DNA of 58,345 nucleotides from assembly GCA_016180725.1 (NCBI GenBank), contig JACPAR010000014.1:1-58345 (forward strand), read 5' to 3'. Numbering within the stretch: position 1 is the first letter of the stretch; every line of letters begins with the position of its first letter. A model generated the notes under the pieces. That model searched no databases and was not told the DNA's origin. It saw only the letters and a program-made list of their open reading frames with translations. A program made the position numbers and the translations under genes. The DNA comes from Candidatus Levyibacteriota bacterium (GTDB lineage Bacteria; Patescibacteriota; Microgenomatia; Levybacterales; UBA12049). Shown in pieces: positions 821 to 57,586 of the stretch.

Positions 821-3346
821 TTAGCTTTCTTCAACACATGTTGCAGAAGTAATGCAATCGGATGGATTAGAAAACCTCATAAGAATTACTCCTTGTGTTG
901 CTCTGGATAATTTTGGAACAGAATCAATTTCCAGCTTTACTACCTGTCCTCTTTTGGAAGTCATAATAATTTCTTTACAATTGGCGGGAATAATTTGCGC
1001 TGTTGCAACTTTTCCTGTTTTTGCTGTAACTTTCGCTACTTTTACGCCTTGCCCTCCCCTACTCTGCTTGTGAAATTGATTGGCAGGAGTTTTTTTACCA
1101 AGACCTTTTTCCATAAGCGTTAGAAGATCCGGGTTATCTCCTTTGGCAATAACATCCATGCCAACAACCTGGTCATCTGCCGCTAACTTAATTCCTCTAA
1201 CTCCTCTTGTATTTCTGCCTAAGGGTCTTGCAGATTTTTCCGAAAATCTTATTGCTTTTCCGTTTTTTGAAAAGATTAAAACATCATCATCACCTGTTGT
1301 TAAATTACTCCACACGAGCTCATCGTTTTTATCCAGTTTTATAGCCGCAATGCCATTTCGTCTGATATTTTCAAATTCCGATAACTGTGTCTTTTTGACC
1401 GTGCCGTTTCTGGTTGATAAAAATACATAATCACTTTTGTTTCCTTTAAGATTATAGACTACAAATGATTCAACTTTTTCTCCTGCCTCAATATTTAATA
1501 AATTAATAATGGCTGTGCCCTTACTTGTTCTTTGAGATTCCGAAATTTCAAAAACCCGCAGCTGGTAAACTTTTCCTTTATTAGTAAAGAAAAGGATGTT
1601 ATCGTGTGTTTGGGCGCTTCTAATGTTCATAATGCTATCTTCGTCTTTTGTAGTCATGCCTTTTACGCCTTTGCCGCCGCGGTTTTGTGTTCTAAAACTG
1701 TTTAGAGATTGGCGTTTTATGTAACCGGTTGTGGTAAGAGTTACAACAGTTGGTTCGTTTTGAATAAGATCCTCATCGGAAAACTCTCCTACCTTGCCTT
1801 TAAAAACGCGGGTTCGGCGCTCGTCGCCATATTTTTGTTTCAGAAAAGTAAGCTCCTCTTTTATAACGGTTAAGATTTTTTCCGGATGAGAAAGCAAGTC
1901 TTCCAAATAGGCAATTGTTTCTTTAACCATAATAAGCTCGTCTTCTATTTTTTGCCTTTCAAGCGCAGCCAGACGTCTTAATTGCATATCCAAAATTGCT
2001 ACCGACTGAATTTCGGAAAGTTTAAACCTGGTAATTAAATTATGCTTTGCATCTTCCTGGTCTTTTGATTCACGGATTGTTTTTATAACAGCGTCAATAT
2101 GATCAACGGCAATTTTTAAGCCCTCCAAAATATGGAGTCTTGCTTTTGCTTGTCTTAATTCAAATTCAGAACGCCTAACAACAATTGCATAACGGTGTTT
2201 AAGGTATTCAAGCAGTATTGTTTTAAGATTAAGCGTTTGAGGCGTGTTATCAACAAGCGCAACAATATTTGCCGGAAAGATTGTTTGCAAATTAGTATGC
2301 TTATATAGATTGTTTAAAACTTTTTTTGGTACCGCATCGCGTTTAAGCTCTACAACAACTCTAATGCCGTGGCGGTCGGACTCGTCTCTTAGGTCTGTAA
2401 TTCCTTCGATCTTTTTTTCTTTGGCTAAATCTGCAATTCTGGCAACAAGTAAAGCTTTGTTTACCTGGTACGGAAGTTCGGTAATAATAATTGCAGATTT
2501 TCCCTGACCGATATCTTCTATTTCTGCTTTTCCTCTAATTATTACTCTTCCTCTACCTGTTGTATATATATTTTTTATTTCGGCTGAATCGTAAATTGCT
2601 CCATGGGTTGGGAAATCAGGACCTTTAATGTATTCCAAAAGTTCATCAACGGTAACTTCAGATGTTAAAGAAACAGAGGGGCTAAATGAGACAGAGGGGG
2701 CTACTTCGCCATTTGGCTCTTTTGTCTCTCTTAGCCCTTTTTCCACTTTTGTTTTTCCGATCATGTGAACGATTGCGTCTATAACTTCGCCCAAATTGTG
2801 CGGAGGAATTTTGGTTGCCATACCAACGGCAATACCCTCTGACCCCATTAAAAGTAAATTTGGTAATTTTGCCGGAAGAAAAGTAGGTTCTTTAAGTGTT
2901 GCGTCAAAGTTTGGAATAAAACCAACTGTTTCTTTATCTAAATCATAAAGCATTTCGGAGGTAATAGCTGCCATTCTGGCTTCTGTATAACGCATGGCAG
3001 CCGGCGGATCTCCGTCCATGGAACCAAAGTTTCCCTGTCCGTCAATAAGCGGATATCGCATTGAAAAATCTTGTGCCAAGCGAACCAATGCATCGTAAAT
3101 CGGCATGTCTCCATGAGGATGGTATTTACCCATAACCTCTCCGACAATTTTTGCCGATTTTGAATATTTTGCGCTGTGTGTGAGGTTTAATTCGTGTAGA
3201 GCAAAAAGAATTCTTCTGTGAACCGGTTTTAGACCGTCTCTTACGTCCGGAAGCGCCCTTGAAACAATAACACTCATTGCGTAATCAAGGTACGCCTTCT
3301 TCATTTCTGTTGATATTTCTGTTTTTTGTAATTTACCAATATTCAT
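821..3346 (-). CDS. gyrA: DNA gyrase subunit A
   Basis: 841 aa. N-terminus has [23 protein letters not shown] and YHPHGD, with active-site AAMRYTE. C-terminal beta-pinwheel repeats are present. Confidence 0.97.
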
Positions 3347-46041: not shown

Positions 46042-47997
46042 TCATGCTATTTTTACTTTCAGTTCTTTTTTGAGAGCAGAATAGATTTTGACCCGTTCTT
46101 TAGATATTTCTTCATTAGTTAAAGTCTTTTGCGGATGTTGATAGGTTACTCTAAAAGTTTTTTTGTTTTCGAAAACATCAAGCAAAGAAACATTAACCAC
46201 CAATCCACTTTGTTTTTTAATTACAGAAATAATTTCCTCATATAATATTTTTGGATCAATTAAAAGCCTGACGTCTTCGATGATCGGCGGAAATTTAGGA
46301 ATCGGTTTATATATCTTTTTAAGAGTTGCAAATTTTAGAATTGTTTGGAAATTTAATTCAAAATTTATTATATATTGATCTAATATCTCAATATTACCAA
46401 GATTATTGTCTCCAATATAAATTTCTGCACCTGCTCCTCCGTTTTCTCTCTTTTTAAAGTTTAAACTTTTAATACCAAGGTCGGTCAGCAATTGTTCGAT
46501 AGTCCCTTTTACCTCTAAAAACGAAACATGCTCTTTTTGAATTACTCCGGCAATTATAAGTTCTTCTTTTGGAAGAGAATTTTCTTTCTTTTTATACACA
46601 TTTGCAATCTCAAAGATTTTTATTTCTTCACGATTTTTATTGTCTTTTAAAACTTGCAAAAGACTTGGTACAAGAGTTGTTCGCATGTACGTCATATCTT
46701 CTGTTAAAGGATTTGATAGCTCTACTGCTTTTCCTATTGGACCTTCCAAAAGTTGTTCAGAGACCATTGAATAGGTATAAACTTCGATAAACCCCCAGTA
46801 TTTTAATGCGTTTTTAATTCGTTTTTCCCAATAGAATTCATTGTGTTCCAAAGAGTAGTTTTCTACTCCCGTTAGAGGTGGAGTAATACTGGGAAGTAGT
46901 TGATAACCAAAAACTCTTGCTATCTCTTCTATAATATCTTCTTCTATAGTTACATCTTTTGTTCTCCAGCTTGGAACTTTTGTTGTTAGACTGTAATTTT
47001 CTATTTTTGTTTCAAAACCAAGACTATTTAATATTTGAATAGAAGTAGTAGCTGGAACTTTTATACCAATAACTTTATCTATTTTTTCTAAACTAATAGA
47101 AATTATATTTGTTTTTATTTTATTTGGGTAAATATCAACAATATTGGAAGCAAGCTTTGCGTCAGCAATTTTTTTATAAAGTTCAATGCCTTTTAATAGA
47201 GCAGTCATTGCTAACTCCGTGTCAATATCCTTTTCGTTTAAAACTGCTGCTTCTGTTCTAATTGCCAAAAACATGGAAGTTTTTCTAATTCTGTGTGAAT
47301 CATTATTGTCGATAAACAAAAGTATTCTTTTTGTCTTATTGGTAACAGCACTATTAGCGGTTCCTATTACTCCTAAAAGATCAACAATTTCTCCTTTTCC
47401 GTTATCCGCGACTATATCTCCTCCTTGCAGAATATGTGTTTTTCCATCCAGAGTAGTTACTTTTTCTCCTTTTTTTGACTCGCGGATAATAAGGGTATGG
47501 GTTATAAGTCTATCGTAATCAAAAACATGAACCGGGTGTCCGGTTTCTCTCATTACAAAATTAGTTACATCAACTAAATTATTAAGCGATCTTATTCCGG
47601 ATGCTTCGAGCCGATTTTTTATTATTTTTGGAGAGTCTTTAAGATTTACTTCCATAACAGCTGCACATATTCTATTAACAAGCGAAGGATCGTTTTTAAT
47701 ATGAATGGGCAGAATTATTCCAGGTTTTTGTTTTACTTGAGATACCTTAAGAGGTATAAAAGTAGCGGGAATCTTAAATTTTGGAAGCACAGTTGCCGCT
47801 TCTCTTGCCAATCCAACTACAGACATTAAATCCGGCCTGTTAGTTGTGACCTCAATATCATAAATATAATCAGTTTCAAATCTTTCAATTTTTTCTACAG
47901 AAACACTAGTTAAAGATAAAACTTCAGCAATTTTTTGAGGAGTTGCTTTTGTTTTAACACGTTCTCTTAGCCAGCTATCTAATATTTTAATATTCAT
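46042..47997 (-). CDS. pheT: Phenylalanine--tRNA ligase beta subunit, short form without the N-terminal tRNA-binding domain
   Basis: 651 aa. The B3/B4 domain lies at the N-terminus (NRPDLMSVVGLAREA). B5 and the FDX-ACB-like C-terminus are present. It directly follows pheS. Confidence 0.9.
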   Translation of the reverse strand: MNIKILDSWLRERVKTKATPQKIAEVLSLTSVSVEKIERFETDYIYDIEVTTNRPDLMSVVGLAREAATVLPKFKIPATFIPLKVSQVKQKPGIILPIHIKNDPSLVNRICAAVMEVNLKDSPKIIKNRLEASGIRSLNNLVDVTNFVMRETGHPVHVFDYDRLITHTLIIRESKKGEKVTTLDGKTHILQGGDIVADNGKGEIVDLLGVIGTANSAVTNKTKRILLFIDNNDSHRIRKTSMFLAIRTEAAVLNEKDIDTELAMTALLKGIELYKKIADAKLASNIVDIYPNKIKTNIISISLEKIDKVIGIKVPATTSIQILNSLGFETKIENYSLTTKVPSWRTKDVTIEEDIIEEIARVFGYQLLPSITPPLTGVENYSLEHNEFYWEKRIKNALKYWGFIEVYTYSMVSEQLLEGPIGKAVELSNPLTEDMTYMRTTLVPSLLQVLKDNKNREEIKIFEIANVYKKKENSLPKEELIIAGVIQKEHVSFLEVKGTIEQLLTDLGIKSLNFKKRENGGAGAEIYIGDNNLGNIEILDQYIINFELNFQTILKFATLKKIYKPIPKFPPIIEDVRLLIDPKILYEEIISVIKKQSGLVVNVSLLDVFENKKTFRVTYQHPQKTLTNEEISKERVKIYSALKKELKVKIA

Positions 47998-47999
47998 AA

Positions 48000-49034
48000 T
48001 TAAAATTGTTCTAGAAAATCTAAATTATTTGAGTACAATAATCGTAGATCGTCAATTTCTAATCCTTCTTTCATCATAACAACTCTTTCTACTCCCCAAC
48101 CAAAAGCAAAACCAATGTATTTTTTTGGATCTATTCCTCCGAAACGCAAGACATTTGGGTGAACCATTCCCGCACCGCCCATTTCAAGCCAACCAGCTTT
48201 GCAAAGCTTGCAACCTTTACCTTCGCAAACGCCACAGGAAACATCAACTTCAAAAGAAGGTTCTGTAAATTGGAAATGATAGGGTCTTATTCTCGATTTT
48301 CTGTTTTGACCAAAATAAGATCTAACAAAATAATCAAGCGTTCCTTTAAGATGGGTTATAGAAATATTTTTATCAACTACCAGTCCTTCAAATTGATGGA
48401 ACATTGGCGTATGGGAAACATCGGATTGCCTTCTGTAGCATTTAGCAATATTAAGCATTTTAATTGGAGGTGTTTTCTTTCGTTCCATCTCTCTTATTTG
48501 ACCAGAGGAAGTGTGGGGGGTTAAAAGAACAGACCCTTTTTTTAAATTGGGTTTTTGTTTTACAAAAAACGTTTCCCAATCATCGCGGGCCGGATGATTT
48601 TGCGGGAAATTAAGCGCTGTAAAAGCATACCAATCCCATTCTACTTCCGGATATCTAACTCTGGTAAAACCTATTTTTTCAAAAATAGCACTTATTTCTT
48701 CGATTGCCTGGGTAATAAGATGCAGATGCCCAAGAGAAGGTTTTATGCCAGGCAGGGTAATATCAATTATTTCTTCTTTTTTGTACTCCAACTTTCCTAA
48801 TTGGGCAACTTTTTCTTTAATTGTTTCCTCGATTGTTAGTTTTACTTCATTTGCGAGTTTTCCAATTTCCGGCCGTTTTTCTTTGGGTAATTTTGAAATA
48901 TCTTTTAAAGCAAGAGTAAGTTTTCCGTTTTTTCCTAAGAATTGTTGTTTGACTTCCTCCAGAGATTCTAAATTCTCTGATTCGAGGATAAACGACATTG
49001 CAGTATTTTTTATATTAATAAGCTCTTCTTCCAT
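48000..49034 (-). CDS. pheS: Phenylalanine--tRNA ligase alpha subunit
   Basis: 344 aa, with class II motifs: HPARD, FRRQSDVSHTPMFHQFEG-like, GFAFGWGVERV. Confidence 0.95.
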   Translation of the reverse strand: MEEELINIKNTAMSFILESENLESLEEVKQQFLGKNGKLTLALKDISKLPKEKRPEIGKLANEVKLTIEETIKEKVAQLGKLEYKKEEIIDITLPGIKPSLGHLHLITQAIEEISAIFEKIGFTRVRYPEVEWDWYAFTALNFPQNHPARDDWETFFVKQKPNLKKGSVLLTPHTSSGQIREMERKKTPPIKMLNIAKCYRRQSDVSHTPMFHQFEGLVVDKNISITHLKGTLDYFVRSYFGQNRKSRIRPYHFQFTEPSFEVDVSCGVCEGKGCKLCKAGWLEMGGAGMVHPNVLRFGGIDPKKYIGFAFGWGVERVVMMKEGLEIDDLRLLYSNNLDFLEQF

Positions 49035-49312
49035 TATTTTTCTATTTTATAAGACTCCTTAAAAATTATTTTCCAGATTTTATTTATAAAAGCCTTATCT
49101 ATATTATAACCTTTTACTTTATTTTTTAGAGATTCAATTTTTTCATATTCTCTTTTGTTGTCTTTAATCTTTAAATTGTGCTGTTTTTTATATTCTCCAA
49201 TTTTTGCAATAAGCAAAAACCTTTTAATTAAAAGATTTAAAATACCATTATCAATTTTATCAATTTCTTCTCTGTATTTCCGTAGCTGATCCATAAATTT
49301 AAGTTTGTCCAA
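49034..49312 (-). CDS. Chorismate mutase (AroQ class, monofunctional)
   Basis: 92 aa, with LRKYREEIDKIDNGILNLLIKR....KIGEYK. Confidence 0.85.
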   Translation of the reverse strand: MDKLKFMDQLRKYREEIDKIDNGILNLLIKRFLLIAKIGEYKKQHNLKIKDNKREYEKIESLKNKVKGYNIDKAFINKIWKIIFKESYKIEK

Positions 49313-50969
49313 GTATTCTTATTACAGGGCAATATACTTCTAATTCTTTAATAGCTTTTGTAAAAGAAGGATCTTTAGATTCTTTTTCTACTTCAACAAA
49401 GAAATGATAATCCCATAACTTTTCACTGCTTGGTCGTGATTCTAACTTTGTTAGATTGAGATTATGATTTGCAAATACGTTTAGTAAATCCCGTAATATA
49501 CCTACCCTGTTATAAACGGTAAGAAAAAGAAGAGTCTTTTTATTACTAATACCAGGAATTTTTATAAGATTTTTTGCAACGATATAGAATCTAGTTGTAT
49601 TTGCCGGATTATCTTCGATGTTTTTTGTAAGTATTTTTATTTTATACTGTTTCGCAGCTATATCTGAAGCAATATAGGCATAACCTTTTTGGGGAAAATT
49701 TAGCGCAGATGTTGTGCTAACAGCAGAAACTCTTTTGGCATTGGGAAGATTTGTATTAAGCCACTGCTTACATTGTGCTAGAGCTTGCGGATGAGAAATT
49801 ACAGTGTGAATATCTTTTAGATCTTTTTGGTTTGATAAAAGTTGTTGGTGAACAGGAATAGTAACAGAACCAATTACAGAAAGTGAAAATTCAATCAAAT
49901 AATCGAGAGTTTCCCTAACAGTTCCTTCAATTGAATTTTCTGCAGGAACTACTGCAAAATCTGCCTCGTTATCCAATATCTCTTTAAAGAGATCAAAAAA
50001 CGTTTCGGCAGGAATTTTTTTCTGCGTTACTTTGGAAAAAACAAGAGATGCTGCCTGATGAGAAAAAGTTCCTTCGGGTCCAAGATATGTTATCTTTGCT
50101 TTCGAAGGGGTGATTACTAAAGGAGCTTTTGTAGGAATTATTACCGTTATTTCATTAACAAGCTTAAGAATTTTATCTGTCTGAAGAACCGAAAAATTTG
50201 AAAAGTCATTTGCGAATTCTTTTTCTTCGGAAAACATATCTATAAAACCTTTTTCATCTTCATTCTCTAAAATATTAAGGAGGTTTTTTCCTTGTGTTAA
50301 CAATGCTTTTAACACTGGTTCAAAATATGGATTATAAAATTGAATATCGCTCATGAGTTTTAAATCCTGATGTAAAACTCTTCCCATAATTAGTGACTGA
50401 AGAGCAAAAATTGGCGTATGAAGTTTGTTTTTTAACACATTTTTTTGCTCAAAGATAATTTTTGAGTACAAAAGATTTATTGCATGTGTAAATGCTTGTA
50501 TATAAGCCATCTGGTAGTCATGTTCCTCGGCAGTCATATTAAATATTTCGATACCTGCTTTTGTGAATAAATTTTTAAGGAATAAAACATAATCATTATC
50601 ATTTTGTTTACAAAAAACTATTTTTAGACCTTGGTTAATTTGTGCGCTTGGGCCAAAGAGCGGATGCATGCCAAGCGTTGCGCATTTAGCTCCTTTCATT
50701 GCTTCAGCAGGCATAACTTTAAAAGAAGTCAGGTCGGTAAGAAGCGAATGTTTGTCTATATGGGGAAGAATATCTTTTATTACTTTTTGAGTTTCGGAAA
50801 TTGGTACAGAGATAATAACGATATCAGATTTTTTTGCAAGTTCTTTCGAAGTTAATTTGGTATTTCTTCCGGCAATAAGTACCGGTAGATTTTGTGTCTG
50901 AAAGAACGAAGCAAACCACTGTCCCATTTTACCGGTGCCGCCAATAATGCCGATTGTTGGTTTTTTCAT
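49299..50969 (-). CDS. Fusion of prephenate dehydrogenase (TyrA) with prephenate dehydratase (PheA) and an ACT domain
   Basis: 556 aa. The N-terminus has IGIIGGTGKMGQWF...MHPLFGP (TyrA). The C-terminal half has YLGPEGTFSH, VVPAENSIEGTV, NTTRF and an ACT domain (LESRPS...WDYHFFVE), which is PheA. Confidence 0.85.
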   Translation of the reverse strand: MKKPTIGIIGGTGKMGQWFASFFQTQNLPVLIAGRNTKLTSKELAKKSDIVIISVPISETQKVIKDILPHIDKHSLLTDLTSFKVMPAEAMKGAKCATLGMHPLFGPSAQINQGLKIVFCKQNDNDYVLFLKNLFTKAGIEIFNMTAEEHDYQMAYIQAFTHAINLLYSKIIFEQKNVLKNKLHTPIFALQSLIMGRVLHQDLKLMSDIQFYNPYFEPVLKALLTQGKNLLNILENEDEKGFIDMFSEEKEFANDFSNFSVLQTDKILKLVNEITVIIPTKAPLVITPSKAKITYLGPEGTFSHQAASLVFSKVTQKKIPAETFFDLFKEILDNEADFAVVPAENSIEGTVRETLDYLIEFSLSVIGSVTIPVHQQLLSNQKDLKDIHTVISHPQALAQCKQWLNTNLPNAKRVSAVSTTSALNFPQKGYAYIASDIAAKQYKIKILTKNIEDNPANTTRFYIVAKNLIKIPGISNKKTLLFLTVYNRVGILRDLLNVFANHNLNLTKLESRPSSEKLWDYHFFVEVEKESKDPSFTKAIKELEVYCPVIRILGQT

Positions 50970-52090
50970 ATTTTTATTTTTAAGTTTTTTTGATAACTTT
51001 CAAAATTTCTTTTTGTTTCCTCAATACTATCTCCGCCAAATTTATCTAGCATCGCATCTGCCAAAACAAAAGCCAGCATGGCTTGCGAAATAACACCTGC
51101 TCTTGCCACGACGCAAACATCAGATCTTTGGATTGTTGCAGTTGCCGGTTCTAAAGAAGAAATGTCTACCGTTTTTAACGGATCATAAAGGGTTGATATA
51201 GGTTTATGAAAAACTCTGCAGAAAATATCTTCTCCATTTGTTATTCCTCCCTCAATTCCGCCCATATTGTTTGTTGATCGTGTTATTTTTTTGTCTTTAA
51301 CAATTATTTCATCCTGAACTTCTTTTCCGGTTTTTCCGGCTGCTTCTATGGCATTGCCAATTTCTACTGCTTTTACAGACGGAATACTCATTAGAGCTTG
51401 TGCAATCCTTCCGTCAATTCTTCTGTCAAAAGCAACATAACTGCCAAGCCCAATTGGTACGTTATGGGCAATAACTTCAAGTACTCCTCCAAGTGTATTT
51501 TTATTCATTCTCGCATTGGTAATTTCCTGTTTCATTTGTTCGCGTGATTTTTCGTCAACGCAATGAACATCCGGATCAATTTCGTTAATTTCTGCAATTT
51601 CTTCAAAAGAATAATTTTGTTTTGATGATTTTATTTTTCCAATTTGAATTGTATGACTGGCAATTTGTGTACCAAATTCCAAAAGTAATTTTTTACAAAT
51701 AGCACCAATTGCAACACGCATAACAGTTTCGCGGGCAGATGCTCTTTCTAAAACATTTCTAACATCATCAAAACCATATTTTAAAACTCCAGCCAAATCT
51801 GCGTGTCCTGGTCTTGGGCGGGTAACTTTTTCTTCCCATTTTGCCTGATCAACAGTTTCAACTAACAAGGCAATAGGACTTCCTAGTGTTTTTCCAAATC
51901 GAACACCCGATAAAATTTTTACCTCGTCTTTTTCAATTTTTTCTCTTCCTCCACGGCCAAAATCATGCATTCGCTTTTTTAATTCAGTATTAATTTCAGA
52001 GGTACTAATTGGTAGTCCTGCCGGAATTCCTTCCAGAATTGCAACTTCTGCAGGGCCATGGGACTCGCCTGCTGTTAAAAATCTAAGCAT
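50966..52090 (-). CDS. aroC: Chorismate synthase
   Basis: 374 aa, with LRFLTAGESHGP, GRGGREK.. and RSDVCVV. Confidence 0.95.
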   Translation of the reverse strand: MLRFLTAGESHGPAEVAILEGIPAGLPISTSEINTELKKRMHDFGRGGREKIEKDEVKILSGVRFGKTLGSPIALLVETVDQAKWEEKVTRPRPGHADLAGVLKYGFDDVRNVLERASARETVMRVAIGAICKKLLLEFGTQIASHTIQIGKIKSSKQNYSFEEIAEINEIDPDVHCVDEKSREQMKQEITNARMNKNTLGGVLEVIAHNVPIGLGSYVAFDRRIDGRIAQALMSIPSVKAVEIGNAIEAAGKTGKEVQDEIIVKDKKITRSTNNMGGIEGGITNGEDIFCRVFHKPISTLYDPLKTVDISSLEPATATIQRSDVCVVARAGVISQAMLAFVLADAMLDKFGGDSIEETKRNFESYQKNLKIKI

Positions 52091-52919
52091 TATTCTTTTT
52101 CCTTTCTATTTCTAAATCTAGTGCTTTTTCCATTTCTTTAATTGGTGCTTTATTTTGGGTAAAAAGCTCGAATTGGGGAATTGCGCCATAAAAAAGCATT
52201 TTATCTCCATATACGACTTTTGCGCCTAAATTTTTTGCTGCTTTTAAAAGTTCTGTTTCTTTTGGTACATAAACAATATCGTAAACTATATGGTGCGATT
52301 GTAAGTATTCAACTGGAATAGGTGTTTCGTCTTGTTTTGGTTCCATGCCAACAGACGTTGTATTTATGATGATATCTGCTTTTATTATTATTTCTTTATT
52401 ATCAAGTGTATAAGCACCATTTAAATCAAATTCTTCAACTAATTCTTCTGCATTTTGAATGGTGCGATTACAAACATTAACAATTGCCCCTTCTTTTTTT
52501 AATCCATATACAACAGCTCTGGCTGCTCCGCCGGCTCCTAAAACTACAACGGTTTTTCCGGCTATTGATGTAACTTTTCGTAGAGCTTCCAGAGAACCCG
52601 TCCAGTCGGTATTGCTTGCCGTAAGCATGCCATTGTCGTTTACAATTGTATTTGCAGCGCCGATTTTTTTTGCTGTTTCATCTGTGTTATCAACGTATTT
52701 TAATACTTCAATTTTATGAGGTACTGTTACAACAATTCCTCTAACATTTAAAGCTCTTAAGCCTTCTATTGCCTTTTTTACATCCTTAACATGAAACGCA
52801 ACAAAGGCAAAATTCAATCCAAGCGCTTGATATCCGGCATTGTGCATAATAGGAGAAAGTGAGTGTTCAACAGGATCTCCGATTATGCAGCAAAGTTTTG
52901 TTTTGGCATTTATATTCAT
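52083..52919 (-). CDS. aroE: Shikimate dehydrogenase
   Basis: 278 aa, with SLSPIMHNA, VTVPHK, NTDW.G and GAGGAARA. Confidence 0.92.
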   Translation of the reverse strand: MNINAKTKLCCIIGDPVEHSLSPIMHNAGYQALGLNFAFVAFHVKDVKKAIEGLRALNVRGIVVTVPHKIEVLKYVDNTDETAKKIGAANTIVNDNGMLTASNTDWTGSLEALRKVTSIAGKTVVVLGAGGAARAVVYGLKKEGAIVNVCNRTIQNAEELVEEFDLNGAYTLDNKEIIIKADIIINTTSVGMEPKQDETPIPVEYLQSHHIVYDIVYVPKETELLKAAKNLGAKVVYGDKMLFYGAIPQFELFTQNKAPIKEMEKALDLEIERKKNNA

Positions 52920-52922
52920 ATC

Positions 52923-53429
52923 TTACTCCTTTAATTTTAACATAATTTTTTTCGCTACTTGTTGTGTTGATATATTTTCCGTGTTTATTGTTTCATCACT
53001 CGCCTTAAGATATTGTTGATATCTTTGTTTTAAGGTCTCCTCCATATCTTCTTTTCTTGATTTCTTTCCGGTAAGAGAAGGTCTATTTTGGTCATCGCCA
53101 ATTCTTTTGAGTAACGTGTTAACACTCACTTGTAACCAAAAGAGTTTACCATGTTTTTTGAGCGCTCTAATATTTTCAGGACGCACCACAACTCCCCCGC
53201 CTGTTGATATAACGCTATTGTCTTTTTTGGATATTTCGATAATGACTTCGGATTCTATATCCCGAAAATAGTTCCAATCGTGATTGGCAATAATTTTCGG
53301 TATACTCATTCCCATTTTTTGCACGATAAGTTCGTCCGTCTCCACGTATTTTTTTTGCAGCTTTTGAGCAAGAATTTTTGCGACCGTTGTTTTGCCGGAT
53401 CCCCGCATGCCAATAAGAACAATATTCAT
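52923..53429 (-). CDS. aroK: Shikimate kinase
   Basis: 168 aa, with Walker A GMRGSGKTT and ISTGGG. Confidence 0.9.
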   Translation of the reverse strand: MNIVLIGMRGSGKTTVAKILAQKLQKKYVETDELIVQKMGMSIPKIIANHDWNYFRDIESEVIIEISKKDNSVISTGGGVVVRPENIRALKKHGKLFWLQVSVNTLLKRIGDDQNRPSLTGKKSRKEDMEETLKQRYQQYLKASDETINTENISTQQVAKKIMLKLKE

Positions 53430-54706
53430 GGTAATACCTCTATTTTTGCCCCGATCTTTTGTAGATCTTCAAAAAATGCAGGGTATGATTTTCTAACGAC
53501 TTCCGCATTTTGAATTACCGTTTTTCCTTGTGCTCCAAGAGCCGCAATTGCAAAACTCATTGCAACGCGATGATCATTGTGCGTATCTATTGATGTGCCT
53601 TTTGGATTACCCCCTTCTATATTTAGTGATTTATCATCATAATTAACTTTAACTCCCATTTTTTTAAGTTCTTTTATTGTTGTTTCTATTCTATCGCTTT
53701 CTTTATACCTAAGATGCCCAATATTATTTATTTTTGTAGTGCCTTTTGCAAAAGCTGCAACTACTGTAAGCGTTTGGACAATATCCGGATAGTCGCTCAT
53801 GTCAATTTCTATTCCGTTAAGTTTTTTTCCAACAACGGTAAAGCCATCAATTTCTTTTTTAATATAGCAACCCATTTTTTCTAGTAATTCCAAAAAATAT
53901 TTGTCTCCCTGACTGGAATTAACGCTAAGATTTTTAACGGTAACTGATCCATTTGTTATTGCTGCAGCGGCAAAAAAGTAGGAGGCGGATGAATAATCTC
54001 CTTCAATAGTATAACTTTTACCTTTGTATTGTTGGCCTTTTTCAATTGTAAAGTTTTGAAAATTATTTTTCTGCACGTTAACACAGAATGTCTTCATAAT
54101 ATCTATTGTTAAGGCAACATATGGTTTAGAAACAAGCTCTCCGTCAATTTTAGTCGTTAATGATTCTTTTGCAAAAGGAGCGACTAATAAAAGAGCGCTT
54201 ATATATTGAGAGCTGATGTCGCCTTTTATAACAATATTTCCTCCGCTGATTTTACCTCCCTTAATTTTTATCGGAGGGCAACCGTTGTTATTTACAGAGT
54301 AAGCTTTTATACCAATTTTATTTAAGGCATCAATTAGTTCTCCAACTGGTCTTTGGCAAAGTCTTTTTTCGCCAGTCAGTGTTGTTTCTCCATCCGCTAA
54401 AGCACAAACAGCTGCAATCATTCGCATTGTTGAACCGGAGTTGCCTAAAAAAATAGGTTTAGCGGGAGCTTTAAGTTTGCCGTTGCTACCGTTAATAGTA
54501 ATCTTATTTCCATCTCTTTGAATATCAACCCCCAAAGCCTTAAGGGCGTCGATTGTACGCAAAGTATCCTCTGCAATAAGTGCATTATCGATTACAGATT
54601 TTCCATTAGCTAGAGAAGCAATTATTATTGCTCTATGAGTAACTGATTTTGAGGGAGGAGCAGAAATTTCTCCGTTTACTTTTGATGGATATATTTTTAC
54701 ATTCAT
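53426..54706 (-). CDS. aroA: 3-phosphoshikimate 1-carboxyvinyltransferase (EPSP synthase)
   Basis: 426 aa, with PPSKSVTHRA, LGNSGSTMR, DHRVAMSFA. Confidence 0.95.
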   Translation of the reverse strand: MNVKIYPSKVNGEISAPPSKSVTHRAIIIASLANGKSVIDNALIAEDTLRTIDALKALGVDIQRDGNKITINGSNGKLKAPAKPIFLGNSGSTMRMIAAVCALADGETTLTGEKRLCQRPVGELIDALNKIGIKAYSVNNNGCPPIKIKGGKISGGNIVIKGDISSQYISALLLVAPFAKESLTTKIDGELVSKPYVALTIDIMKTFCVNVQKNNFQNFTIEKGQQYKGKSYTIEGDYSSASYFFAAAAITNGSVTVKNLSVNSSQGDKYFLELLEKMGCYIKKEIDGFTVVGKKLNGIEIDMSDYPDIVQTLTVVAAFAKGTTKINNIGHLRYKESDRIETTIKELKKMGVKVNYDDKSLNIEGGNPKGTSIDTHNDHRVAMSFAIAALGAQGKTVIQNAEVVRKSYPAFFEDLQKIGAKIEVLP

Positions 54707-55143
54707 GAAGTTTTTCTAATATGCTCAACAAGTTTTTCAAGACCAATTATATAGCCTTTTTCTTTAAGTCCCATAATCCGTTTAATAACGATTCCGTCAA
54801 GAACATCCGTTTTTCTAAACTCTTCCCTTTTTTTAATATTAGAAAGGTGAACTTCAACAATAGGTAAATCAGTGTCGACAAGAGCATCTCTTAATGAATA
54901 ACCGTAATGAGTAAGCGCTCCCGGATTAATAAGAACACCATCTGCATGTTTACTTTCTTTTTGTAGAAAATCAATCAATTCTCCTTCGTGATTTGATTGA
55001 AAAAATAAAAGCTCAACCTTGTATTTTTGTGCATGGTTTTCTAATTCAGCATTAATTTCATCAAGACTTTTTATTCCATAGTGATTTTTATCTCTATTCC
55101 CTAATATGTTTAGATTAGGGCCATTGAGTATTAAAATTTTCAT
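54703..55143 (-). CDS. aroQ: 3-dehydroquinate dehydratase, type II
   Basis: 146 aa, with ILILNGPNLN.LG.R....YG and INPGALTHY. Confidence 0.93.
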   Translation of the reverse strand: MKILILNGPNLNILGNRDKNHYGIKSLDEINAELENHAQKYKVELLFFQSNHEGELIDFLQKESKHADGVLINPGALTHYGYSLRDALVDTDLPIVEVHLSNIKKREEFRKTDVLDGIVIKRIMGLKEKGYIIGLEKLVEHIRKTS

Positions 55144-56204
55144 ATGACGACCTCATCTAAGACACTTTGTATAATTTCTTTTTCAACATGATTATTTATT
55201 GTAGTTTCACCAATTTTATTTACTAAAATAAATCTAGGAATTCCATCGACTGCTTTTTTGTCTTGAGACGTTAATAAATATGTATCACTTTTTGATATTT
55301 TTGAAATTTTAGTTGGTAAGCCGTATTTTTTTATTAGTGAAATCATGCGTTGGGTAATTTTTTCATCCAGCAGTCCAATTTTTTTGCTTAATTTTATTGC
55401 AAATACCATTCCTATCGCAATTGCTTCTCCATGTGATAATTTACTATCTAACTCAATTGCGTGTCCGAGAGTATGGCCAAAATTTACTATCATGCGAATA
55501 TCCTTTTTGTCCTGCGAGTCTCTTTCTACTTTCTCCATTTTGAGTTTAACACATCTTTTTATAATCCAATCCATAGTTTTGTCATCTAAAATTTTTGTTG
55601 TTTCAAGCTTTTCGAATAATTCTTTATCTATGGCAATTGCGTATTTGATGATTTCTCCCATTCCAGAAATTATTTGTTTTTCTGGCAGACTTTTTATTAT
55701 TTCTGTGTCAATTAAAACTATTCTTGGTTGCTTAACTGTGCCAATTGTATTTTTATGTTTTCCAAGATTTATTGCGCCTTTTCCTCCAAGTGCCGAGTCA
55801 ACTTGGGCAAGTAGAGTAGTTGGAATTTGTATGCAATCGATTCCTCGATGGTAGAGGGCTGCAACAAGCGTTGCAACATCTCCAACAACTCCTCCACCCA
55901 CTGCAATTACAGCTGCTTTTCTATCCATTTTCCGGTCAAGCATTTTTTGTAATATTTTTAAAATTACAGATATATTTTTTGCCTTTTCTCCAACAGGTAT
56001 TACGTGAACATATATTGGAACAGAAAGAGATTTTAAAGAAGCGTTTATTTTATTTCCAAATATTTCATTAGTTTTAGAATCACAAAGAATCAAGTAACTA
56101 CTATGTTTAAAACGCTTTAAGACTTCGGTGATATTATTTAAAACGCCTTTTTCAATAATAATATTTGTAGTTTCTTCTTGTTTTATGCAATAAGTTTTTT
56201 TCAT
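55140..56204 (-). CDS. aroB: 3-dehydroquinate synthase
   Basis: 354 aa, with GGGVVGD.A, IPTTLLAQVDS and GHT.GHA.E. Confidence 0.93.
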   Translation of the reverse strand: MKKTYCIKQEETTNIIIEKGVLNNITEVLKRFKHSSYLILCDSKTNEIFGNKINASLKSLSVPIYVHVIPVGEKAKNISVILKILQKMLDRKMDRKAAVIAVGGGVVGDVATLVAALYHRGIDCIQIPTTLLAQVDSALGGKGAINLGKHKNTIGTVKQPRIVLIDTEIIKSLPEKQIISGMGEIIKYAIAIDKELFEKLETTKILDDKTMDWIIKRCVKLKMEKVERDSQDKKDIRMIVNFGHTLGHAIELDSKLSHGEAIAIGMVFAIKLSKKIGLLDEKITQRMISLIKKYGLPTKISKISKSDTYLLTSQDKKAVDGIPRFILVNKIGETTINNHVEKEIIQSVLDEVVI

Positions 56205-56219
56205 AGTTTTGATTAAGGT

Positions 56220-56972
56220 TTACCAGGGTTTAACCAATGTATCAAATTGCTCCCAGGTTAATTGTTGTTTAGCATCTGTAATAGCAACTTTTGGATTTGG
56301 ATGGACTTCTACCATAAACCCGTCAAAAGAGTAATTTCGCGCTTCCTGTGCAATCTTTAATACATTCTCTACGCTTCCGCCCGTATGCGAGGGATCAAAA
56401 AGCATGGAAAGTCCTGTTTTCTCTTTTATTCTCATTGTCATTTCAAAATCCGGGACATTGCGATATCCGTTAGGATTATGACCATTAGGAGAAAAACCCC
56501 GATGGCAAATAAATAAATTACTTTTTTTAATTCCTCCCTGCAAAACATGATCGATTATTCCTTCCCAGTGTTCTTCATTTTGCCAGGGTTGATTTTTAAC
56601 CATTAAATAAACGCGATTATTACTAGATGCAATTTTTGAAATTTCCTGCTGAATATAGTGGTTTTGATTTCTTGCTCCAATCCAAACCAATACTTTTCCA
56701 TTTTTTGTAGCTTTCAATACTGCACTTATTACTTTTTCTGCATGCTCGGGAAGAATTACTTCGGTTGACGGGTTAATGCCTTCTTTTGCTGCTTCTACAA
56801 GTAGCGGAATACCTTCTTCTTTTAGCCCGTCAAATCCGGGTTTTGTACGTGGTTTCCACAAGCTTATACGCATGAAATCTATAGTTCGCTTTTTTGCGAG
56901 TTTGATTGATTCTCTGATTTGTTTTTTTGATTCTGCGGCACACGGCCCGGCGATTAGTATTGTTTTTTTCAT
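56220..56972 (-). CDS. aroF: 3-deoxy-7-phosphoheptulonate (DAHP) synthase, short type I-beta form (bare TIM barrel, no regulatory domain)
   Basis: 250 aa, with IAGPCAAES, LWKPRT, DPSH..G. It has no N- or C-terminal extension and is the first gene of the operon. Confidence 0.85.
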   Translation of the reverse strand: MKKTILIAGPCAAESKKQIRESIKLAKKRTIDFMRISLWKPRTKPGFDGLKEEGIPLLVEAAKEGINPSTEVILPEHAEKVISAVLKATKNGKVLVWIGARNQNHYIQQEISKIASSNNRVYLMVKNQPWQNEEHWEGIIDHVLQGGIKKSNLFICHRGFSPNGHNPNGYRNVPDFEMTMRIKEKTGLSMLFDPSHTGGSVENVLKIAQEARNYSFDGFMVEVHPNPKVAITDAKQQLTWEQFDTLVKPW

Positions 56973-56997
56973 AAAAAAACCTCCCTTTTAGGGAGGT
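56973..56997 (-). terminator. Intrinsic terminator hairpin that also sequesters the aroF Shine-Dalgarno sequence
   Basis: The minus-strand RNA reads ACCUCCC-UAAAA-GGGAGGU followed by U6 and then AUG. That is a 7-bp stem, a 5-nt loop and a U-tract. Confidence 0.75.
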
Positions 56998-57023
56998 AGT
57001 TCTTGCATTGCTAACGCACTAAC

Positions 57024-57080
57024 TCACCTCCCGGTTAGGGAAGTAAAGTAAAAATAAAACCAAGCTTGTGCGCTACTCAT
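57024..57080 (-). CDS. Candidate leader peptide MSSAQAWFYFYFTSLTGR (18 aa) with six consecutive aromatic codons
   Basis: Hand-translated: AUG AGU AGC GCA CAA GCU UGG UUU UAU UUU UAC UUU ACU UCC CUA ACC GGG AGG UGA. It starts 13 nt after the rplT stop. Confidence 0.65.
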   Translation of the reverse strand: MSSAQAWFYFYFTSLTGR

Positions 57081-57093
57081 TAATATAATCTTA

Positions 57094-57444
57094 TCAGATA
57101 TTTTTTACGGAGTCAACTATTTGCTTGAAGGAGTTAATGTCTTTATTAATTAATTCGCTTAAGATTTTGCGATCAAGTTCGATATTTGCTTTTTTCATCT
57201 TGTTAATAAAAACGCTGTAAGAGAGACCTTCTTGTTTTACTGCTTCGCCAATTCTTGTAATCCACAATTGTCTAAAGTCTCTTTTGCGTATTTTTCTTCC
57301 ATGATAAGCATAAGCACCTTTATGAAGCGCTGCTTCGTGAGCAACTCTAATTAATTTGCTCTTTGTGCCGCGAAATCCTTTTGTTTTACTTAGTAATTTT
57401 TTGTGTTTTCTTCGAGATACAATACCTCTTTTTACTCTTGCCAT
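57094..57444 (-). CDS. rplT: 50S ribosomal protein L20
   Basis: MARVKRGIVSRRKHKKLL...GFRG..S.., 116 aa. Confidence 0.96.
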   Translation of the reverse strand: MARVKRGIVSRRKHKKLLSKTKGFRGTKSKLIRVAHEAALHKGAYAYHGRKIRKRDFRQLWITRIGEAVKQEGLSYSVFINKMKKANIELDRKILSELINKDINSFKQIVDSVKNI

Positions 57445-57586
57445 ATGGTTATAAATTAAATTTTAACAAATTTATTAAACTTCTCTTTTATGTATTTACC
57501 AAAACTTTTATACGAATTGGTTGCAGAACGTTCTGAGCGCGTTTGCCTAAAATTAATATTTTTTCGAACCCTCTGTTTTACCATAT

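Follow-up and report, generated by a model that had tools for sequence, protein, structure and literature searches.

The 58,345-nucleotide (nt) contig JACPAR010000014.1 of a Candidatus Levyibacteriota bacterium, referred to below as the window (G+C content 34.6%), carries on its minus strand an operon for aromatic amino acid biosynthesis, which is separated from the ribosomal protein gene rplT by a spacer of 121 nt. The spacer contains a short open reading frame (ORF) with six consecutive aromatic codons, followed by RNA segments capable of forming mutually exclusive hairpins. Comparison with related genomes, together with predicted RNA folds, indicates with a probability of about 85% that the site attenuates transcription in the classical ribosome-mediated manner, by means of a leader peptide and in response to aromatic amino acids. 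A leader ORF and four RNA segments had been described here in an initial annotation, and reading of the minus strand from 57500 to 56700 found all of its elements, at the positions given below.

57024..57080, minus strand: leader ORF of 18 codons plus stop, MSSAQAWFYFYFTSLTGR (from the sequence; homologous short ORFs at 52 further sites)
57045..57062, minus strand: proposed regulatory codons UGG UUU UAU UUU UAC UUU (W F Y F Y F; from the sequence)
57026..57044, minus strand: hairpin 1:2 (anti-antiterminator), ACUUCCC-UAACC-GGGAGGU (-9.1 kcal/mol; covaries in relatives)
56991..57032, minus strand: antiterminator 2:3, a 42-nt hairpin of 17 base pairs (bp; 7+4+6) (-21.3 kcal/mol; excludes both 1:2 and 3:4)
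56973..56997, minus strand: intrinsic terminator 3:4, ACCUCCC(U)-AAA-(A)GGGAGGU plus seven T (-12.3 kcal/mol)
57111..57116, minus strand: predicted -35 hexamer TTGACT, within the 3' end of rplT (consensus scan and position in relatives)
57088..57096, minus strand: predicted extended -10 element, TGaTAAGAT (consensus scan and position in relatives)
46042..56972, minus strand: operon under the proposed control, eleven tightly packed genes (ORF list, Pfam)
57094..57444, minus strand: rplT (L20), the upstream neighbour (Pfam Ribosomal_L20)

Anatomy of the leader region and its operon

The leader ORF, reading ATG AGT AGC GCA CAA GCT TGG TTT TAT TTT TAC TTT ACT TCC CTA ACC GGG AGG TGA, starts with the ATG at 57080, 13 nt past the stop codon of rplT (TGA, 57096-57094), and stops at 57026-57024. 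Segment 1 (ACUUCCC, 57044-57038, minus strand like the other three) begins immediately past the last Phe codon, and the leader stop codon overlaps segment 2 (GGGAGGU, 57032-57026). Hairpin 1:2 is encoded by the codons for T-S-L-T-G-R, its last base being the first base of the stop codon. The final 3 or 4 codons of the aromatic run are located 3-12 nt from segment 1, a geometry in which a ribosome stalled on them would mask that segment. Segments 3 (ACCUCCC, 56997-56991) and 4 (GGGAGGU, 56985-56979) form the terminator, and its T run (56979-56973) directly adjoins the ATG of the DAHP synthase gene, aroF, at 56972. GGGAGG at 56985-56980 lies 7 nt ahead of this ATG, and segment 4 is the sole Shine-Dalgarno-like sequence ahead of aroF. 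The alternative pairing of segments 2 and 3 had been described as 11 bp long; the 7+4 bp seen then are present, but the antiterminator is larger, since an apical helix of 6 bp (UGCGUU, 57018-57013, with AAUGCA, 57009-57004) extends it to 17 bp. Segment 1 is also similar to segment 3, and segment 2 to segment 4 (56979-57044, minus strand).

Energies were computed with ViennaRNA. For the transcript 57080-56979 the terminator state (1:2 plus 3:4) was calculated at -22.4 kcal/mol and the antiterminator state at -22.7 kcal/mol, so that in the folding model the two states are effectively isoenergetic and 2:3 is able to compete with 1:2 plus 3:4, an issue on which the initial annotation had staked its proposal. 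Over its full 134 nt the leader region has a folding energy of -39.6 kcal/mol (z = -4.1), with none of 200 dinucleotide shuffles being as stable. Runs of at least six consecutive aromatic codons occur four times in the six frames of the 58 kb window, the leader run included; by chance, about 0.004 of them would be expected on a single strand of a 121-nt spacer.

The genes of the operon overlap or abut in the order DAHP synthase, aroB, aroQ, aroA, aroK, aroE, aroC, tyrA/pheA fusion (prephenate dehydrogenase/dehydratase), chorismate mutase, pheS and pheT. The first of them encodes a DAHP synthase of 250 amino acids (Pfam DAHP_synth_1), and the 3' end of the operon is convergent with a gene for a penicillin-binding protein. 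No minus-strand terminator comparable to 3:4 was found inside the aroF-pheT block. The element therefore stands in front of eleven genes for the synthesis of chorismate, Phe and Tyr and for the charging of tRNA-Phe, and the genes downstream of the leader are exactly the pathway whose products the codons of the run specify.

A candidate promoter of the sigma-70 type, TTGACT-17 nt-TAAGAT, precedes the leader; the TG upstream of its -10 hexamer is part of the rplT stop codon TGA, and the hexamer ends 7 nt short of the leader ATG. At the 43 related loci used for structure analysis (see below), a TTGACA-like -35 element, perfect in 25 of them, is found 16-19 nt from the -10 box and in the same place relative to the leader ATG, the distance from the -10 box to the ATG being mostly 7-13 nt. 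This conservation points to a dedicated promoter for the leader and aro operon, embedded in the 3' end of rplT, and because the -10 box is so close to the ATG, the leader mRNA is probably leaderless or has a very short 5' untranslated region. A Shine-Dalgarno-like tetramer precedes the leader in just 2 of the 43 loci. Such motifs also stand before only 9 of the 52 larger genes of the window, rplT and infC being without one, and the strongest in the region, GGGAGG before aroF, is an arm of the terminator. For this rarity, the absence of a Shine-Dalgarno sequence was rejected as an argument against translation of the leader. Corynebacterial leader peptides can be made without a ribosome-binding site, according to Morbach (2000) as cited in PMC4046766.

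Upstream of the leader, no terminator belonging to rplT itself was found in the window, and transcripts running on from infC-rpmI-rplT should consequently be halted by the attenuator whenever the leader goes untranslated. Further upstream, rpmI and rplT are separated by a spacer of 142 nt (57445-57586, minus strand), which has no match in Rfam and contains a 42-codon ORF (57584-57456) without a Pfam match; in other bacteria the rpmI-rplT operon is autoregulated by L20 via RNA structures. Among named organisms, the DAHP synthase has its nearest homologues (65-76% identity) in Candidatus Levybacteria, Daviesbacteria and other Microgenomates, in agreement with the earlier guess that the DNA belongs to the candidate phyla radiation (CPR). 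The gene order infC-rpmI-rplT-leader...pheS-pheT, pointed out at the same time, is real in the window and recurs in the complete Levyibacteriota chromosome CP066685.1 (locus L085), which has thrS-infC-rpmI-rplT-leader-aro...-pheS-pheT in the same order.

Conservation of the leader and its hairpins in related genomes

For comparison, 80 DAHP-synthase loci (L numbers below) were retrieved from species-representative genomes with a profile of 30 homologues. When the 330 nt preceding each DAHP synthase gene were scanned blind for ORFs, 42 loci showed ATG-started ORFs of 14-29 codons that contain runs of 4-9 F, Y or W codons, for example MNRSWFYFYFTSQTGR, MKQFNNRKITFWFYFTS and MKNTRWQNSFYFFYFYGFPVGVVC (Vampirovibrio chlorellavorus). 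A covariance model, R1, was built from a hand-annotated seed of eight relatives, the window being left out. Altogether the element was found in 50 of the 80 loci: 42 by the ORF scan, 7 more by the covariance model, and one locus of Bacteroidota (L080). Adding the window and two tandem second copies gives a total of 53 leaders, carried by Microgenomates (Levy- and Daviesbacteria), MAGs (metagenome-assembled genomes) labelled Saccharimonadia, and Vampirovibrionia. In the window, R1 matches positions 56972-57062 of the minus strand with 79 bits (E about 1e-11), the single match in 58 kb, and it found no further copy of the element there. By these sequence matches, the window site belongs to a proposed new family, the aromatic leader of a subfamily of short (about 250 amino acids) DAHP synthases in CPR bacteria and Vampirovibrionia.

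The short ORF with its W/F/Y run, for which conservation had been predicted, is indeed preserved in frame in the 53 leaders. Read in the frame of the ORF, the runs comprise 333 codons, of which 321 are aromatic; the other two frames give 110-115. TTT alternates with TTC and TAT with TAC among the leaders, the order of F, Y and W varies from locus to locus, and Trp is present in 29 of the 53. Because synonymous codons and residue order vary while aromaticity in frame is kept, the pattern indicates selection on codon identity, i.e. on translation, rather than on a U-rich RNA. Outside the run, the N-termini of the peptides (14-29 residues) differ freely and the C-termini track the hairpin sequence.

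The position between rplT and pheS is less general. Only about 15 loci have rplT as upstream neighbour; the leaders of Vampirovibrio and of further loci stand before aroF with no rplT in the 3 kb of upstream flank examined, and in Daviesbacteria L084 (JACPKL010000010.1) it follows trpEGDCFBA-tkt-tal, with neither rplT upstream nor pheST downstream. These arrangements suggest that the leader belongs with aroF and that its rplT-pheS position is a feature of one lineage. The description of the site as lying in the pheM position thus holds for the lineage of the window, but there is no sign of pheM orthology, as the leader travels with aroF. Orthology by position was rejected, since nine genes intervene between leader and pheS and the L084 leader precedes aroF without rplT or pheST.

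Several loci depart from the layout of the window in other respects. In seven of them (L024, L026, L029, L042, L049, L050 and L065, at about 2000-3000 in each), which are the seven added by R1, a gene for a PfkB-family carbohydrate kinase of about 305 amino acids is inserted between the attenuator and the DAHP synthase gene, and the kinase is therefore the first gene under aromatic control there. Tandem attenuators, with two aromatic leaders and one terminator each, precede the DAHP synthase gene at L061 (2712-2935) and L063 (2673-2948); at L061 the ATG of the second leader is located directly past the T run of the first terminator. The Vampirovibrionia and a few cyanobacterial MAGs (L033-L043, L046, L048 and L051) possess the short DAHP synthase subfamily too, with 51-60% identity to the CPR enzyme, and the architecture of their leaders is the same as in the window. 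By this distribution, gene and regulator may have been transferred together, or may go back to a very old common ancestor. The 'binchicken' MAGs L001, L004, L008 and others have the gene order of the window, and their L20 and DAHP synthase proteins share 70-74% identity with its own; since these records are titled 'uncultured Gammaproteobacteria bacterium', their taxonomic labels look unreliable.

Signals in front of other amino acid genes were also observed. In L084, a leader of about 270 nt before trpE (580-850) ends in a strong hairpin and T run (about 785-845); it lacks a short ORF rich in W and is without a match in Rfam, which likewise gave no support to a T-box suspected there from a GGUGGCAC motif. 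The trp operon of L084 may use a different attenuation signal. A second attenuator type is present in CP066685.1 (L085, 6134-6270), where a TTGACA-17-TAGTAT promoter and the leader MNKNQIITITTIPS, with a run of Ile and Thr codons, are followed by a hairpin CCUUCC/GGGAGG and a terminator ACCUCCC-AUAAA-GGGAGGU plus six U, directly before the threonine dehydratase gene ilvA. A scan of all retrieved loci found no attenuator types other than this ilvA case.

The structures following the leader were analysed in 43 loci. A hairpin with a T run follows the leader in all of them, with terminator stems that differ by lineage (CCUCCC/GGGAGG, UCCCCC/GGGGGA, CCCCGC/GCGGGG and CAGCUCCC/GGGAGCUG). Covariation was assessed in a model-based alignment of 36 sequences, which was fitted to 1:2 plus 3:4; this inflates the pairing of these helices, but not their contrast with slid controls. 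In this alignment 91.7% of the cells of 1:2 plus 3:4 are paired, compared with at most 70.6% in slid registers, and both sides have changed in 9 of the 14 pairs (31 cells). Covariation scores 0.274, which none of 500 shuffles reaches (0.146 in shuffles). Taken separately, hairpin 1:2 has changes on both sides in 5 of its 7 pairs and terminator 3:4 in 4 of 7, with 98.8% of the terminator cells paired. MAFFT combined with RNAalifold gave no consensus structure for the 43 cores, because differences in loop length misalign the stems and two states compete.

The antiterminator is as widespread as the terminator. When the region from the end of the aromatic run to segment 3 was folded, all 43 loci gave a 2:3 hairpin closing on segment 3 (median 17 bp, -18.9 kcal/mol). 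Compared with dinucleotide-shuffled versions, the linker joining the 2:3 cores contributes more stability at every locus (z < 0 in 43 of 43, 31 of them below -1.65; mean z -2.44). The two halves of 2:3 also pair better when they are cognate (-19.1 kcal/mol) than when they are taken from different loci (-14.4 kcal/mol), none of 20000 permutations being as good. In constrained folds, which are an equilibrium proxy for a kinetic process, a ribosome footprint placed at the stop codon allows the terminator to form in 43 of 43 loci, and a footprint on at least one aromatic codon abolishes it in 41 of 43. The alternative pairings foreseen for the window are thus conserved, with terminator and 2:3 present in 43 of 43 loci and covariation in both 1:2 and 3:4.

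Proposed mechanism and alternative explanations

The element combines the four sequence features of classical attenuators: a run of regulatory codons, a terminator, an antiterminator exclusive with it, and a hairpin 1:2 overlapping the end of the ORF. The trp/pheA-type logic put forward in the initial annotation is accordingly upheld by the in-frame run, the terminator in 43 of 43 loci, the covariation of 1:2 and 3:4, the locus-specific antiterminator and the constrained folds. Given this anatomy and its conservation, helices that covary and two states of balanced energy, we infer the transcription start, translation of the leader, coupling of the two processes and a response to amino acid supply.

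Transcription would start at the promoter in the end of rplT, at the leader AUG or a few nt before it, and a ribosome would translate the 18-codon leader. With an ample supply of charged tRNA for Phe, Tyr and possibly Trp, the ribosome would reach the UGA overlapping segment 2 and cover that segment; segment 3 would then pair with segment 4, and RNA polymerase would terminate at the U run just ahead of the DAHP synthase gene. When charged aromatic tRNAs are scarce, the ribosome would stall on the last Phe and Tyr codons, masking segment 1 and freeing segment 2, which would nucleate the 17-bp 2:3 hairpin, so that no terminator forms and transcription reads through into the eleven-gene operon. 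If the leader is not translated, as for example in read-through transcripts from rplT, 1:2 and then 3:4 would form and transcription would stop. By the geometry of the run, its last 3-4 codons (possibly Y, then F, Y and F) are presumably the ones that matter.

Some observations weigh against this mechanism, or against parts of it. The unconstrained minimum free energy structure of the window pairs segment 1 with segment 4 around 2:3, and the equilibrium structure is therefore not the terminator state; this nesting of 2:3 within a 1:4 helix arises because segment 1 resembles segment 3 and segment 2 resembles segment 4. After read-through and release of the ribosome, such a fold could, according to the model, re-sequester the region before the aroF start codon. 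More generally, the computed folds are thermodynamic and attenuation is kinetic. The 7-bp core of 2:3 covaries weakly in fixed columns, with only 6 cells changed on both sides and 84.3% paired (at most 70.7% for slid registers), since there is little variation in the core and the register of pairing is shifted in some lineages. Promoter-like matches in the AT-rich window are no rarer than in shuffles (48 vs 42.7), and the promoter assignment accordingly rests on its conservation in relatives. Lacking a Shine-Dalgarno sequence, the leader would have to be translated by leaderless or short-leader initiation, as judged only from the promoter geometry. The Trp codon stands 18 nt before segment 1, probably too far for masking, and sensing of Trp by this particular leader is doubtful. 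Finally, the organisms are uncultured, and the support consists entirely of sequence comparison and predicted folds.

Among other explanations, the one that survives best, improbable as it is, holds that the switch is mainly translational, of the ermC type: 3:4 would hide the ribosome-binding site GGGAGG of the DAHP synthase gene, stalling would free it via 2:3, and termination would be secondary. The window itself is compatible with this, as segment 4 provides the only Shine-Dalgarno-like sequence before aroF and the T run abuts the ATG, and a spacing of 5-6 nt between terminator and ATG is also found in L007, L008 and L021. However, in the other loci, about 39 in number, the terminator is located 10-168 nt upstream of the start, yet the hairpin and T run are kept in 43 of 43, which marks termination as the conserved output. 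The scarcity of Shine-Dalgarno-like motifs in the window (9 of 52 genes) also tells against it, and for that reason GGGAGG is better explained as stem sequence. The view of segment 4 as a Shine-Dalgarno lock, part of the initial annotation, consequently stands only as a possibility in the window and three relatives, about 4 of the 43 loci, in a genome that rarely uses Shine-Dalgarno sequences; it is at best a local extra to transcription attenuation.

It is still less probable that the product of the site, either a functional aromatic micropeptide or the terminated RNA of roughly 105 nt, acts in trans besides or instead of the cis action described above. There are precedents in Sinorhizobium, where the attenuator products rnTrpL and peTrpL reportedly act in trans. 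Against a functional peptide stands the lack of conservation outside the aromatic run, with free N-termini, C-termini dictated by the hairpin and lengths of 14-29 residues, which is what is expected of a regulatory leader.

A further step down in probability, and very unlikely, is switching of the hairpins by a trans-acting factor, such as a TRAP- or PyrR-like protein, a T-box-like tRNA or a metabolite, with the short ORF being incidental. Firmicutes do regulate aromatic genes by T-box and TRAP mechanisms, but the leader here spans just about 100 nt, and none of the T-box or riboswitch families of Rfam matches it. Moreover, its only strongly conserved non-helical feature is the in-frame aromatic run immediately 5' of segment 1, a placement needed by a ribosome acting as sensor and not by a ligand sensor.

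Least tenable of all is that the aromatic ORF arose by chance in a T-rich spacer and that the hairpin and T run do no more than terminate the infC-rpmI-rplT operon: although rplT has no other terminator and TTT and TAT codons are common in a genome of 35% G+C, the comparative sequence data already contradict this, as the ORF, the run, 1:2, 2:3 and 3:4 stand before DAHP synthase genes without rplT nearby (Daviesbacteria L084, Vampirovibrio L033-L043), with 321 of 333 run codons aromatic in frame and a chance expectation of about 0.004.

Beyond transcription attenuation at this one operon, it is conceivable, though unlikely, that the four-segment CCUCCC/GGGAGG scaffold is a modular attenuator cassette with a promoter that yields a leaderless leader mRNA, re-used by these small-genome bacteria for different amino acids by codon swaps and moved together with its gene between CPR and Vampirovibrionia. 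Its likeness to pheL and pheM could then be due to common descent and not to convergence, and its Shine-Dalgarno-like GGGAGG arms might directly engage the ribosome. Aromatic codons before aroF and the Ile/Thr codons of MNKNQIITITTIPS before ilvA in the Levyibacteriota chromosome CP066685 would be examples of such re-use.

If the attenuator operates as proposed, some members of the CPR, a group commonly seen as auxotrophic symbionts, synthesize aromatic amino acids themselves and adjust the entire pathway, along with phenylalanyl-tRNA synthetase (PheRS), to tRNA charging. Transcription and translation would have to be tightly coupled in the organisms that carry it, and leaderless or near-leaderless initiation would suffice to drive a regulatory switch. 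In practical terms, an RNA family of more than 50 members, with seed alignment and model, would be ready for annotation pipelines, and would correct annotations as 'hypothetical small ORF' or empty spacer in hundreds of MAGs.

Comparison with known attenuators

No family of Rfam 15 reaches its threshold at the window element. The best matches, both over the full model length, are Phe_leader (RF01859), with 26.1 bits against a gathering threshold of 55, and Trp_leader (RF00513), with 24.3 bits against 41; Trp_leader gives the best Rfam E-value at the site, 0.0055 in a search of 251 nt. Membership in either family was rejected, both scores being below the gathering threshold.

The E. coli pheM-pheST locus shares with the window the neighbourhood thrS-infC-rpmI-rplT-leader...pheS-pheT, and PheRS is encoded downstream of the attenuator in both. 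The ending of the pheM peptide, which the initial annotation had given exactly, resembles the ...FYFYFTS of the window, and the element described here is similar to both pheL and pheM in its stem sequences and in its ...FYF(T/S)(S/T) ending. Unlike in E. coli, nine biosynthetic genes stand between the leader and pheS, and the promoter overlaps the rplT stop codon, whereas E. coli has a separate rplT terminator and a gap of 122 nt. Other lineages have the leader next to aroF but no rplT upstream, and Daviesbacteria L084 lacks pheST downstream as well. R1 ranks the pheM attenuator first in its locus, with only 28.4 bits.

With E. coli pheL-pheA the element has in common four segments, based on CUUCCC/GGGAGG and CCUCCC/GGGGGG stems, and a U-run terminator. 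The leader ends in ...F-T-F-P or ...F-T-S..., with the stop codon in or beside hairpin 1:2 in both cases. In contrast, pheL has a Shine-Dalgarno sequence, only Phe codons and a single controlled gene, pheA. R1 ranks the pheL attenuator first in its locus with 30.3 bits; the likeness (UUU and UAC codons, a G+C-rich stem and a U run) is at a level that shared constraints could produce. The trpL-trp attenuator of E. coli follows the same 1:2 / 2:3 / 3:4 logic, but has only two Trp codons and controls a different operon.

In the Tannerella sp. MAG L080 (666-800), a leader MKGLFGTYFYFYFYFNR and a terminator precede a prephenate dehydratase (pheA)-aminotransferase operon that ends in a distant homologue of DAHP synthase. 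This Bacteroidota attenuator differs from that of the window in its first gene and its stems, which are of the GCCUGCC / GGGCGGGA type, and its R1 match is weak (29.6 bits). Leaders resembling pheL have been considered possible in Bacteroides (PMC3082878). A survey of 2010 described leader-peptide systems as shown only in Proteobacteria and Actinobacteria and added cases in Firmicutes (PMC2965389), and full-text searches found no literature linking leader-peptide attenuation to CPR/Patescibacteria or Vampirovibrio.

The closest system by function, judged from published descriptions, is the aroR-aroF attenuator of Corynebacterium glutamicum. There, a leader with Phe-Tyr-Phe controls a DAHP synthase gene by ribosome-mediated attenuation (PMC4046766; PMC11802643), and the two systems are alike in having a mixed Phe/Tyr leader and in controlling the first gene of the common aromatic pathway. 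They differ in phylum (Actinobacteria vs CPR/Patescibacteria and Vampirovibrionia), in the run, which is longer here (4-9 aromatic residues, often with Trp), and in the operon, which here adds the terminal enzymes for Phe and Tyr and PheRS. The mechanism itself is classical and involves no new regulatory principle; what is new is the lineage, the previously unannotated RNA family and the promoter/leaderless layout, and this layout, together with an unusually long operon that includes PheRS, is what distinguishes the element from its known counterparts.

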